DNA of 63,445 nt, counting the filler, from Octopus bimaculoides (Eukaryota), in assembly GCF_001194135.2 (NCBI RefSeq). It is 8 parts of 7 records of this genome, joined end to end, with 100 filler letters (N's around TTAATTAATTAA, not from the genome) between each part and the next. Parts side by side here need not be neighbours in the genome. Positions count along the whole stretch, not along the records: positions 20,449 to 32,061 come from NC_069005.1; positions 32,162 to 39,379 come from NC_069008.1; positions 39,480 to 50,220 come from NC_068991.1; 5 more parts are not named here. One strand, given 5' to 3'. Below are positions 23,944-48,445 of the stretch, piece by piece. The translations under genes were made by a program, and so were the position numbers. Positions within the stretch are counted from its first letter, which is position 1; the number at the start of each line of letters is the position of its first letter. The notes below the pieces were generated by a model, which was given only the letters and a program-made list of their open reading frames with translations, was not told where the DNA came from and searched no databases.

Positions 23944-24011
23944 CTCATATTGTTGTTCCATGCTCAAAATGAGGAATAGATAAGATAGACAGTCGACAAC
24001 TGACGAAGGGT
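23944..24011 (+). ncRNA. Hammerhead-like motif with non-canonical strand order (family W)
   Basis: CTCAT-A-TTGTTG ... GCTC-(G>A)AA-ATGAG ... CGACAA-CTGACGA-A-GGGT. Stem III CTCAT/ATGAG, stem I TTGTTG/CGACAA, stem II GGGT/GCTC. Confidence 0.55.
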
Positions 24012-24230
24012 CGTTCTTTGTGTTACTTGTCCTATTTTCCATTTGTTTCTCTCATTGTTTGCATATTGAACTCATTTGTTTTCATATTTCATGTTGTTTA
24101 CTGTTGGTGGTGTCCTGTACCCATATATACATACATCTATTATTATTTGATTGAATGCCTTGCATCCATTTCTAAGTAAGTTTATATATATATANNNNNN
24201 NNNNTATATACATACATGATGATGCAATAG

Positions 24231-24264
<34 letters not shown>

Positions 24265-24853
24265 GTGTAGCTAGATAGAAATATATATTTGTATATATAT
24301 ATATATATATGTATACATACATATATACTTAATGTATATTAAGTGTACAAGTGTATATATATGTGTACATAAATACATATTTTTACATGAAGTTGAATAT
24401 ATGTCCGGTCATAAAATGACCAATGGTTTCACATCCATAAAGTGCTTAGCTTTATAGATGAAACATCAGACTCCAGTAATGACTGTGAGCATATATTGGT
24501 CATTCTACGACAAGATATATATTTAACTTTTTGTGCATACATTATTGCTCTAACTTTAGTGGAGTGTTTCTTTTCCGGATATATGATCCACTGACAGTAT
24601 ATATATGTGTGTCAGTGTGTATGTATATGTGTGTGTGTGTGTGCATTTCTATATCATCATCATTATCATCATCATCATCATCATCATCATTTAACGTCCC
24701 TTTTTCTATGCTGGCATGGGTTGGATGGTTTGATCAGAAAAGATGAGCCAGAGGATTCCATCTGGTTCTATGTCTACCTTGGCATGGTTTCTGCAGCTGG
24801 ATGCCTTCCCTTCCATCAACCACTTAACAGTGTGTACTAGATGCTTCTTACAT

Positions 24854-24904
<51 letters not shown>

Positions 24905-26460
24905 TTTAAAAAGCTTGATTCCCAACATGTTATACCTTGGACAAATTTCTTCTACGATAGCCCTGTACTGACCAAAACATTGTGAGTGGATTCCATTGGA
25001 CAGAAACTGATAAGAAGCCAATGGGTATTGTTGTAAGGCTGTCTTTTGCCATTGTTGTGTCTGTCTTTTGCCATTGTTTTTTTTTTTTTTTTATGATGGT
25101 TGTCGCTCTAACAGATATTGTTATCTTTTGAAATTGTCAACAGAATGCTTCTCTCTGGCACTGTATGACTGTTATTATCGGTATAACATTAGTATCACAG
25201 TATAATTACTATATCAGCCTAGACATTGCTATCAACACAGTCAACATGTACACTTGACCTTCTGACCTTTTTATGTTGACCGGCTACTGGTTTATTTATA
25301 ATGGCTGGCTACTACCACTTTTTACCATGGAGGGGTGTACAGTTTCACCATGCAACAGGTATTGAACAGAGAACACGAAGAACTGTAAATATATACAATG
25401 GAGCATTTTGTCTGTCATACTACAGCAATTGCCAATCCACTTGCAATAACGAAACTGCTAATGTTGCTAGTCTACCATAATTGCCAATCTGTTACAGCCA
25501 TCAATCCACAACCAGGGCACTGAAAATTGCCTGCTCATCACAATAGCCAATCTATCCTCATTGTTAATCTTTCTCCGTTGCTAATCCACCAATATTGTCA
25601 ATCTGTTATGAAGGAGTAATCAACCTCTGTTATCAATGATAATGATAAATACTGATGATGATGATGATGATGACGATGACGCTGATGATGGTCATAATGT
25701 CAACACATGTCGACGATGATGATAATGATAAAGGTGATGATGTCGATGGTGGAAAAGATGGCTATGATGATGCTGGTGATGATGGTAATGATGATGGGTG
25801 ATGATGATGATGGTGATGATCATGATGAGGATGATGAAGAAGCTGATGATGGTGTTGGTGATGATTATAATGTCAATGATGATGATGATGACGAAGATGA
25901 TAATGATGGTGACAGTGATGATGATGATGATGATGATGACAATGATGGTTATGATGATGATGATGGTGATGATGATGGTGATGATGAGGATGATGATGAC
26001 AGTTGTGACAGAACCGAGCTGGATGTTACATTGATGATGATTAAGCTAATGACGTAATTAAACAACCAATCCTTTTGTTAGATGAAGAATACTTCCATCC
26101 GGAACAGAAGCATTAATGCAAACAACAACAACAACAACAACAACAACAGCAGCAGCAGCAGCAACTACAATTGACACAAGAAAATTATACGAAAGAAATG
26201 GCAAAAAATATAATTAATAAGGTAAAAAAAAAAAAGCTAAAACAGCAACAAAAAGCATAAAGTAGAAAAAAGAAAGACAAAATTTTCAAAAAGATTTCTC
26301 TTCAAAACAAAAACTATTCTTAAATGTAACGGAATTGCAGAGAATGGTAAAAAGAGGGAAAAAAAAAGAAGGAAAGAAAGAAGGAAAAAAAAAGACTTTT
26401 CCATATTGTGTTTGACAGCTTCTGTAAAAGTAGTGATAACATCTATATGTAGGAAATATC

Positions 26461-26498
<38 letters not shown>

Positions 26499-26939
26499 TG
26501 ATGATGATGACAATGATGATGATGATTGTATAAAGAATAATGATGATAATGTTGGTAAGAATAATAATGGTGGTGATAATAACAGTGATGATGATGATGA
26601 TAATGATAATAATAATAATGATAATAATAATTATAAATGATGAAAATGATAATAACAATAATGATAATAATAATAATAATTATAATATTAACGATGATGA
26701 TGATGATAACAAAGGATGAAAATGACATTAATAATAAGTATTAATGATAATAATAGAGTTAATAATAAGGATGTTAATAAGAACAATGATGACGATGATG
26801 GTAGTAGTAGTAGCAGCAGTAGCAGTAATGCTAGTGATAATAAATAATAAAAGACTTAAAGGGAGAGAATAAGAGGGAGAACAGTGATGCAGTCAAGGCA
26901 TTGGTGATATGCAATGCAGGTGATGTGCATGCGTGTGTT

Positions 26940-45851: not shown

Positions 45852-45887
45852 CTTTCTGTCGAAGAGCATAGGCTCAAAACGTAAAAG
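45852..45887 (+). ncRNA. Degenerate minimal type-I hammerhead motif in a pLTR-like repeat ending in (TA)n
   Basis: CTTT-CTGTCGA-A-GAGC-ATAG-GCTC-(G>A)AA-ACGT-A-AAAG. All three stems pair, but A6 and G12 differ from the consensus core. Confidence 0.55.
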
Positions 45888-46576
45888 TCTTTTCTATTTT
45901 TCCTGAGCATTAAACTAATACACCTGCTTGTTGTTCCTACACTAGTCTTTATTATTTGTTTTCTGTAAATTTGAACTATATATATATATATATATNNNNN
46001 NNNNNNNNNNNNNNNNNNNNNNNNNNNNNNNNNNNNNNNNNNNNNNNNNNNNNNNNNNNNNNNNNNNNNNNNNNNNNNNNNNNNNNNNNNNNNNNNNNNN
46101 NNNNNNNNNNNNNNNNNNNNNNNNNNNNNNNNNNNNNNNNNNNNNNNNNNNNNNNNNNNNNNNNNNNNNNNNNNNNNNNNNNNNNNNNNNNNNNNNNNNN
46201 NNNNNNNNNNNNNNNNNNNNNNNNNNNNNNNNNNNNNNNNNNNNNNNNNNNNNNNNNNNNNNNNNNNNNNNNNNNNNNNNNNNNNNNNNNNNNNNNNNNN
46301 NNNNNNNNNNNNNNNNNNNNNNNNNNNNNNNNNNNNNNNNNNNNNNNNNNNNNNNNNNNNNNNNNNNNNNNNNNNNNNNNNNNNNNNNNNNNNNNNNNNN
46401 NNNNNNNNNNNNNNNNNNNNNNNNNNNNNNNNNNNNNNATATATATATATATAAATCCAAAAAATGGAACAAGAATGCAACAAATGACAATAAAACATCT
46501 GGACAGATAGACAATACAAAGATGGATAGAAAAAACAATAAAAAAGATGGATAGGATAAAACAAGGATGGGTCAAT

Positions 46577-46646
46577 CGCAACCTTCTCTCGTCAGTCAAC
46601 TTGTCAAATTATCCTTACAGTTTCGGCTGGTTACACTTGAGACTGT
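46577..46646 (-). ncRNA. Second well-preserved family X hammerhead-like motif
   Basis: Minus strand ACAGT-C-TCAAGT-gtaac-CAGCC-GAA-ACTGT-15 nt-AGTTGA-CTGACGA-gagaa-GGTTG. Confidence 0.55.
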
Positions 46647-47743
46647 TCAAATCTGGATGGCCCCAAAAATCTAAGCTAAGAGCATTAAATTCTTTGGGAG
46701 AAACCAAGCAAATGTGTATGACAACAAAGACAAAAAAAAATGGAGAAAATGTTACACAGTTACAAATACAAACCACAAGAAAATAACAACAGGTGTCTTT
46801 CGACTAATAAAGATGAATCAAGTTGAGCTGGCATGTGTAGAGTAAAAGCCTTGATGCAGGAACATAGAAAATGAACATAATAGGTGAAAGTCATGAGACA
46901 GGAATATAAGAGATGCTTAGTGGCTGGCAGTTGAGCCTGGAAAGAAAGATCATGCCTGGCTGAATACCGGTCACGTGGAAGGAGATGAGAGGTGTAGAGG
47001 GCAGAGGGAGATACGGGAGATACGTGGGGAGGGAAAGTAGGGATTAAAGAAAGAGAAGACCAAGAAATGTGAAAGAGGGGGAGCGAGAAAAAGAAAAGGG
47101 AAAAGAAAGAAGGTATGAGGAGGACTAAAGAAAGAGTAAAAGAGTCATACAGAATTTAGGTACATACTTATAAGGTGAGCAAAAATGTATGTACACCACT
47201 ATATGTATATATAAATTTTTAAAAATGGAACAAAAATGCAACAGACAACAATAAAACATCCAGACAGATAAGTGATACAAAGATGGACAGGAAAACAATA
47301 AAAAGACAGAGAGGAAAAAACAAGGATGGGTCATTCGCAGCCTTCTCTCATCAATCAAGTTGCTAAATTACCCTTACAGCTTTGGTCAGTTACACTTAAG
47401 ACTGTTCAAATCTGGCAGGCCCAAAAAATCTAAGCTAAGAGCATTGGAGTCAACCAGATTTGAACAGTCTCAAGTGTAACTGACCAAAGCTGTAAGGGTA
47501 ATTTGGCAACTTGACTGATGCTTGCTTTCTTCCAAAATATTTAATGCCCTTAGCTTAGATTTTTGGGGTCAGCCAGATTTGAACAGTTTCAAGTGTAACC
47601 AGCTGAAGCTATAAGGATAATCTGGAAACTTGACTGAGGAGAGAAGGCCACAAATAGCCCATCCTTGTTTTGTCCTGTCCATCTTCATATCGTCTGTCTG
47701 GATATTTCATTGTCGTTGTTGTGTCCTTGTTTCGTCTTTTGGA

Positions 47744-47778
<35 letters not shown>

Positions 47779-48377
47779 GCATACATACACTTTTGCTCAC
47801 CTTGTAAGTAAGAATTTATCTAAATTCTGTATGACTATTTTACTTCTTTCTTTACTCCTTCCCTTTTCTCGCTCACCATCTCGCACATTTTTGGCCTTCT
47901 CTTTCTTTAATCTACCTATTTTTCAACATTTATCTCCCTTGTACCTTCTCAATGTCCCTTTGAGTTTTATTCTCTTTCTCATCCTCCCCCTAATTTTTCA
48001 ATCCTTTTGCTCCCTACCTCTCTCCTTTCCTTCCACATGACCGGTGTTCAGCCAAGCATGATCTGCCTTTCTTGGCTCAACTGCCAGACATGAAGCACCT
48101 CTTATTCTTGTCTCCTGACTTTCATCTCTGAGGTTCATCTATGTTCCTGCCTCAAAGCTTTCACTCCACACACACCAGCTTAACTTGATTCATCTCTATT
48201 AGTCAAAAGATACCTCTTGTTATTTTCGTGCTGTTTGTATTTGTAATTGAGAAATATATTCTCTGTATTTTTTTTGTTTTTTTTTGTTTTTTGTCTTTGT
48301 TGTCATACACATTCGCTTGGTTTCTCCAAAAATATTTAATGCTTTTAGCTTAGATTTTTTGGGCCAGCCAGATTTGA

Positions 48378-48445
48378 ACAGTCTCAAGTGTAACTGGCCG
48401 AAATTGCAAGGATAATCTGGAAACTTGACTGAGGAGAGAAGGCCA
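48378..48445 (+). ncRNA. Hammerhead-like motif with non-canonical strand order (family X, all core nucleotides present)
   Basis: ACAGT-C-TCAAGT-gtaac-TGGCC-GAA-ATTGC-15 nt-ACTTGA-CTGAGGA-gagaa-GGCCA. Confidence 0.55.

Follow-up and report, generated by a model that had tools for sequence, protein, structure and literature searches.

Putative split-core hammerhead ribozymes in two octopus repeat families and in Naiad-type Penelope-like elements

The DNA analysed here, referred to as the window, is a stretch of 63,445 nt from Octopus bimaculoides (RefSeq assembly GCF_001194135.2), composed of eight parts joined by 100-nt fillers. The window is microsatellite-rich, has 32-44% G+C outside gaps, and contains LINE and hAT remnants. 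Two repeat families in it, designated X and W, carry the conserved blocks of the hammerhead ribozyme in a non-circular order, and these blocks and their probable host elements are the subject of this study. The copies of the two families are located as follows.

47776-48571 (+): X copy E, a complete non-coding unit of ~795 bp flanked by (TA)n runs, with 77% identity to copy A and a common start base
46454-47199 (-): X copy A, a full inverted unit whose 3' end lies at (TA)n
47213-47445 (-): X copy B, 5'-truncated, a partial tandem upstream of A, pseudo-long terminal repeat (pseudo-LTR)-like
47446-47518 (+): X fragment C, at the head-to-head junction
47519-47746 (+): X copy D, 5'-truncated, a partial tandem upstream of E, with a decayed core (GAAG, GUU site)
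23932-24183 (+): W copy, 5'-truncated, 3' end at (TA)n; ribozyme remnant at 23932-24006

The X copies form a nest in which A and B occupy the minus strand and C, D, and E the plus strand, with the head-to-head point at ~47445 and (TA)n directly after each complete 3' end. X looks non-autonomous, since its two ~790-bp units (A and E) have a common start and no open reading frame (ORF). Sequences of family X were found in 1394 and 974 contigs in the DNA runs of two organisms; W, a single copy in the window, was found in 2287, 1910, and 2330 contigs in the DNA runs of three. Depth over X reaches its maximum on the hammerhead motif; in run X1, summed depth is 26,000-41,000 at 48346-48449 vs 2,000-15,000 in the bins on either side. 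Family majority bases, taken from the 40 of 256 difference rows listed, repair stem III and a further helix, IV, described below.

Three blocks make up the motif: S (stem III strand, cleavage site, and stem I strand), G (stem II strand, GAAA, and stem III strand), and C (stem I partner, CUGANGA, and, in standard hammerheads, a stem II partner). An earlier note on this DNA had reported the order S-G-C in both families, with cleavage bases at 48383 (+), 46641 (-), and 23949 (+), G12 at 48400 and 23966 (A in the W window copy), and pairing of stems I and III; our analysis reproduced all of these and placed G12 of the minus-strand X copy at 46624. CUGANGA lies at 48429 and 46595 in X and at 24000 in W, and X copies E and A keep an intact CUGANGA, GAAA, and UH core. 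The three weaker copies of X that had been listed are present, but their cores are damaged. The 17-nt spacing from H17 to G12 holds in X and W but is no constant, being 18 nt in most of the metagenome relatives described below. A strict S-G-C descriptor (insert of 0-1 nt, GAAA) found 0 sites in the window; with inserts of as many as 5 nt permitted there were 2 sites, and with G12A permitted as well exactly 3 (23949+, 48383+, and 46641-). Shuffled controls, which the note had proposed, came out in its favor, with a mean of 0.025 matches over 200 local dinucleotide shuffles and none with 14 or more pairs. No hammerhead was among the 150 of 277 Rfam matches listed for the window. The motifs are genuine and far beyond chance expectation, and both come from high-copy families.

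The block order is S-G-C and not a circular permutation of C-G-S, as in canonical types I-III. The claim that no natural hammerhead with such an order had been described does not stand: S-G-C is the published type SGC, which was shown to cleave in vitro and in which a helix connects stem I with stem II (Eckert et al. 2023, PMC10085705). The order itself is therefore known. According to that source, SGC and CSG hammerheads come only from metatranscriptomes and metagenomes, with none in the genomes of known organisms save one doubtful GCS, and the published SGC descriptor (CUGAUGA[U]G, G-to-C linker of at most 15 nt) cannot match X or W. X and W have in common with types SGC and CSG a non-circular block ring, pseudoknotted stems, a short S-to-G linker, and a stem I-II helix. 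Unlike these types, in which the C block is unbroken, X and W have a chain break between A9 and G10.1, contain the additional helices IV and V, and probably belong to animal retroelements; a stem II strand within 1-2 nt after CUGANGA, as type SGC has, was not found with the strict descriptor.

The earlier note had placed the stem II partner 3' of CUGANGA. This placement is not borne out in W. Upstream of 23932, the W family sequence ends in GGGAGCAAC in all four runs, and GAGCA within this strand pairs perfectly, in 4/4 runs, with TGCTC before GAAA, while the bases that follow are complementary to the GACAG ahead of stem I; thus, the stem II strand of W comes from upstream. The window copy lacks the stem II 5' strand, hairpin V, and the helix IV 5' strand, and it has G12A and a private 5-nt insertion; its downstream stem II option offers 4 pairs only, two of them G-U. 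G12 accounts for 81%, 72%, and 76% of depth in the three organisms and is hence the majority base of the family, which bears out the suggestion that G12A arose by CpG decay. In the W majority, stem I also regains a C-G pair (86% in X1), and CUGAUGA stands at 97%. As a separate observation, the sequence after the core at 24007-24040 (+) can fold back on the core strand into a long hairpin, a possible off-state.

In X, a downstream stem II partner does exist, but a 6-bp upstream partner at 48362-48367 exists as well. The elements of the predicted structure are located as follows.

48319-48443 (+): copy E, predicted split-core hammerhead with every core base intact; cleavage predicted after C48383
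48319-48326 (+): helix IV 5' strand, pairing with 48436-48443 directly 3' of A9; 7/8 pairs in E
48327-48361 (+): hairpin V, 12 bp, whose last base adjoins G10.1; all cells paired in the window copies
48362-48367 (+): stem II 5' strand (G10.1 = 48362), pairing with 48394-48399; 6/6 in E, 17/24 cells over 4 copies
48368-48374 (+): strand b of the I-helix, which joins stems I and II, pairing with 48414-48420; 7/7 in E, 26/28 cells
48378-48389 (+): S block, comprising stem III strand, U16.1, C17, and stem I strand
48394-48407 (+): G block, comprising stem II strand, GAAA, and stem III strand; majority bases restore stem III at 48404 and 48407 (84% each)
48423-48435 (+): stem I partner and CUGANGA core
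48441-48454 (+): downstream segment, the stem II partner of the earlier note; can form a hairpin of its own and overlaps helix IV
46581-46705 (-): predicted split-core hammerhead of copy A; core intact; predicted cut after 46641; 4, 3, 4, 6, and 7 pairs in stems I, II, and III, helix IV, and hairpin V

The core, stems I-III, and the I-helix are seen in the sequence, as are helices IV and V with zero linkers in X and its relatives. The I-helix and helices IV and V were overlooked by the earlier note, and the 5-nt GAGAA that it took for an insert in X is part of one helix IV strand, pairing with 48319-48326. Copy E has zero linker bases at all three junction crossings; in copy A, stems I and II are shortened by decay. 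The eighth helix IV pair is supplied by the X majority change 48320 G>C (89%), and hairpin V shows one A-U/C-G double change, with C-G as the family majority at 48328/48360 (90%, 86%). The I-helix measures 7 bp in family X and 5 bp in family W; in the metagenome clan introduced below, it reaches 10 bp and shows a double change. A descriptor of the split layout had 1 match in the window and 0 in 300 shuffles, and a seven-helix zero-linker descriptor matched E and A, 0/300 shuffles, and 0/230 unrelated loci. When the core was kept fixed and the flanks were shuffled, helices IV and V of at least 6 bp arose in 14/5000 trials and of 4 bp in 456/5000. A pairing of AAGGAT with downstream ATCCTT was also considered as the I-helix but does not lie next to stems I and II and was therefore rejected.

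The split layout is also found in relatives from metagenomes. A scan with a pattern in which no stem was fixed beyond two G-C pairs gave at least 120 loci; among the matches listed, 15 form one clan with the split layout, consisting of two families close to Naiad_Amil, a Penelope-like element of the Naiad group. In the clan structure (48 pairs in seven helices), 93.6% of 698 cells are paired vs 29-46% when the structure is slid, and double changes between the two families occur in helix IV, the I-helix, and stem I. One clan locus, L179, contains an ORF with a reverse-transcriptase end 326 nt upstream of the motif; this piece resembles the Naiad_Amil C-terminus by eye, a relative of it holds YIDD, and Pfam returned no family for the piece or for 12 relatives. 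A covariance model built from the clan did not find X in register, returning only palindromes, and searches for the exact X motif in viral contigs and the W motif in metagenome contigs gave 0 loci. In viral contigs, a generic pattern gave at least 125 loci, with 0/137 matches forming S-G-C stems. The five multi-match loci listed, the viral contigs L015, L021, L024, L025, and L066, each have several canonical type II hammerheads between genes, a known arrangement.

Published Naiad consensi (PMC8557442 supplement) were inspected at 37 of 54 3' ends, over the last 300-700 nt; all parses of these ends were made by eye. The split form is present in 7/37 (Bfor, 3_Chem, Amil, 2_Movir, Plae, Obim, and Ovul), spanning four phyla with unrelated stems. 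The hairpin in these forms ends at G10.1 or one base before it, and the strand directly 5' of the hairpin pairs with the sequence that follows A9; at the junction, Bfor and 2_Movir show U-U mismatches, the octopus consensi have no more than three clean pairs, and stem I of Bfor has 2 bp. Clean CSG hammerheads were seen in a further 7/37 (Parc, 1_Nbra, 2_Nbra, 3_Nbra, Hcon, Hpol, and Smim) and clean SGC in 2/37 (Lpol, and Sdum with a U3-A8 core), while Ptep is an SGC with a broken stem II and Esco an imperfect split form. In PMC8557442, Naiads are reported to be without canonical hammerheads, and 10 'HHR_core' and 8 'HHR_half_core' families are left unexplained. Since the split layout recurs in Naiads reported to have no standard hammerhead, it is likely an overlooked self-cutting RNA of these elements.

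Other motifs were noted near Naiad 3' ends. In the crustacean Naiad-1/2/3_Dst and Ppla, CUGACGA is kept with a bracketing helix, and the S and G blocks could not be parsed. Naiad-4_Chem and 1_Movir have twister-like motifs near the 3' end, as judged by eye against a printed twister alignment. Naiad-1_Chem, 2_Chem, 1_Skow, and 1_Pfla, which have no hammerhead, carry a conserved GRCGGGTG...CTYAC...CACCTGA at the same 3' position, which may be another self-cleaving RNA.

Partial tandems, an inverted 5'-truncated copy, and (TA)n targets are described for Naiads (PMC8557442), and X shows all three together with a motif near the 3' end; the match of its partial tandems, head-to-head inversion, and (TA)n targets to Naiad insertions supports a Naiad host. 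The octopus Naiad consensi have the same split layout as X; unlike these published elements, X has no ORF and has different stems. Shared with the minimal type I hammerheads of Penelope-like elements and with non-LTR retrozymes (PMC4209133; bioRxiv 10.64898/2026.07.22.740005) are a ribozyme in a pseudo-LTR and non-autonomous derivatives. Unlike minimal type I hammerheads, which are circular, have no stem III, and need dimers, X and W are non-circular and have a full stem III. In Penelope-like hammerheads, a U3-A8 variant is known and an unpaired base 5' of stem II is common (same sources); the unpaired base suggests that a direct A9-G10.1 link may be dispensable. The bioRxiv study searched with type I models only.

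Based on these findings, we consider it likely that X and W are decayed 3' ends of Naiad-type Penelope-like elements, whose S-G-C hammerhead parts are predicted to form a self-cleaving monomer with a chain break between A9 and G10.1. The RNA order would be helix IV 5' strand, hairpin V, stem II strand, strand b, S block, G block, strand a, stem I strand, CUGANGA, and helix IV 3' strand. A9 would lead into helix IV and hairpin V into G10.1, which would make a four-way junction of IV, V, stem II, and the core. Helix IV may stack on V and stem II on the core, placing A9 beside G10.1 without a covalent link and keeping the usual active site. CSG, SGC, and GCS would represent the same ring, with the split form as an opening at a fourth place, probably via partial tandem duplication. 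The cut might set one end of the element RNA in tandem or read-through transcripts, as proposed for other Penelope-like hammerheads, although the role of hammerheads in Penelope-like elements is itself described as unsettled (PMC8557442). As to the fold imagined by the earlier note, its non-circular, pseudoknotted, and probably monomeric character survives, but its stem II with a 5-nt insert is probably wrong, as the wider evidence places that strand upstream.

Several results weigh against this proposal. The window contains no Naiad- or Penelope-type ORF (0/36 ORFs scanned), and hence we infer the host class of X and W. Among the Naiad ends, no hammerhead was seen by eye in 13/37, and a further 4 have a core but no full parse. 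For W, helices IV and V are only partly seen, the loose ends stopping at 30 nt. In the metagenome clan, the double changes are single events between two families (three, not 22), the strict seven-helix descriptor is passed by 6/15 loci only, with 2 cut short at the 5' side, and reverse transcriptase is reached in only 1/15 loci (L179), where GIY-YIG was not seen. The C block is assumed to be uninterruptible, with no insertion of more than 1-2 nt known there, according to PMC10085705. Within X, the downstream stem II pairs in 17/20 cells vs 17/24 for the upstream one in the four window copies, covariation in these copies is not above column shuffles for either structure, and pseudoknot-free minimum-energy folds of copy E do not give the active fold. 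RNA-read ends, which the earlier note had proposed to look for at the cut sites, do not pile up in X (368 and 394 reads) or W (412), whose reads match in both mate directions. This absence says nothing on cleavage: the reads, from ~6% of each of the same-species runs, stem from other copies, with X matches all <99% alike.

Since the downstream segment of X can also pair with the G block, a choice between folds is not possible from X alone. X could form a type-SGC hammerhead of the usual kind, in which stem II lies downstream and a 5-nt bulge follows A9, or it may switch between this fold and the split fold. Besides its 17/20 paired cells, this alternative draws on the mutual complementarity of four X segments and on the validation of SGC (PMC10085705) and its presence in Naiad_Lpol and Sdum. 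We nevertheless find it unlikely, given that the downstream stem II partner is absent in W and in 11 of the 13 metagenome clan loci listed, that the supposed bulge pairs within an 8-bp helix with zero linkers, that A stands at the would-be G10.1 in some loose ends of X subfamilies, and that insertions of more than 2 nt after A9 are not known from PMC10085705. Alternatively, the split forms could be conserved hammerhead-derived structures that have lost cleavage and serve as a binding site for the reverse transcriptase or endonuclease of the element. The broken A9-G10.1 link would fit such a loss, Penelope-like hammerheads often cut weakly in vitro, and many Naiads spread without any visible hammerhead. 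Yet the catalytic bases (CUGANGA, GAAA, and UH) are all kept across four phyla while the stems turn over, and other Naiads have clean CSG or SGC hammerheads or twister-like motifs at the same place, which makes this explanation improbable.

Assembly of a ribozyme from two repeat copies, as in the minimal type I hammerheads of Penelope-like elements, was the other option raised by the earlier note, and no evidence in its favor emerged. The partial tandems D-E and B-A do put two copies on one strand, and dimers are known for Penelope-like elements (PMC4209133; bioRxiv 10.64898/2026.07.22.740005). However, all helices, a full stem III among them, are available in cis within every copy, ~800 nt separate the tandem copies, and no unit has a directly linked stem II strand for CUGANGA except in the bulged option of X; we regard this mode as very unlikely. 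A chance pattern in a repeat-rich genome is hardly credible: the descriptors were tuned after the sequence was seen, but 0/300 shuffles, 0/230 unrelated loci, and 0/137 viral matches, together with recurrence with unrelated stems, contradict it.

Extending the split-core proposal beyond the octopus, we lean toward the view that Naiads across animals use non-circular hammerheads as their standard ribozyme, that one widespread form is a new, active architecture whose catalytic strand is detached from stem II and kept in position by a four-way junction, and that all three forms are one ring reopened by tandem duplication. In the open-licence PMC and bioRxiv literature, with subscription papers mostly uncovered, no paper was found that describes a helix at A9/G10.1 or Naiads with non-circular hammerheads. 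The actual novelty lies in the split-core architecture and the Naiad host. If true, this would be the first report, in the literature searchable, of non-circular hammerheads in animal genomes, and it would account for the statement that Naiads lack hammerheads and for their 'half cores'. It would also break the assumed limit of six permutations, by showing the A9-G10.1 link to be dispensable, and provide a route by which permutations interconvert. A four-way junction at the core could further be usable for engineered switches.

Elsewhere in the window, a decayed hAT transposase with zf-BED and dimerisation domain lies at 39872-42732 (+) and has an internal 245-nt inverted repeat at 41379-41942, and a LINE endonuclease remnant below the Pfam cut-off lies at 44748-45083 (-). 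A short-chain dehydrogenase segment at 3427-3708 (+) is probably a host exon. A near-perfect 96-nt palindrome at 20139-20234 is possibly a small inverted-repeat element, and 12912-13249 and 17222-17559 form an inverted repeat pair of 338 nt with 81% complementarity.

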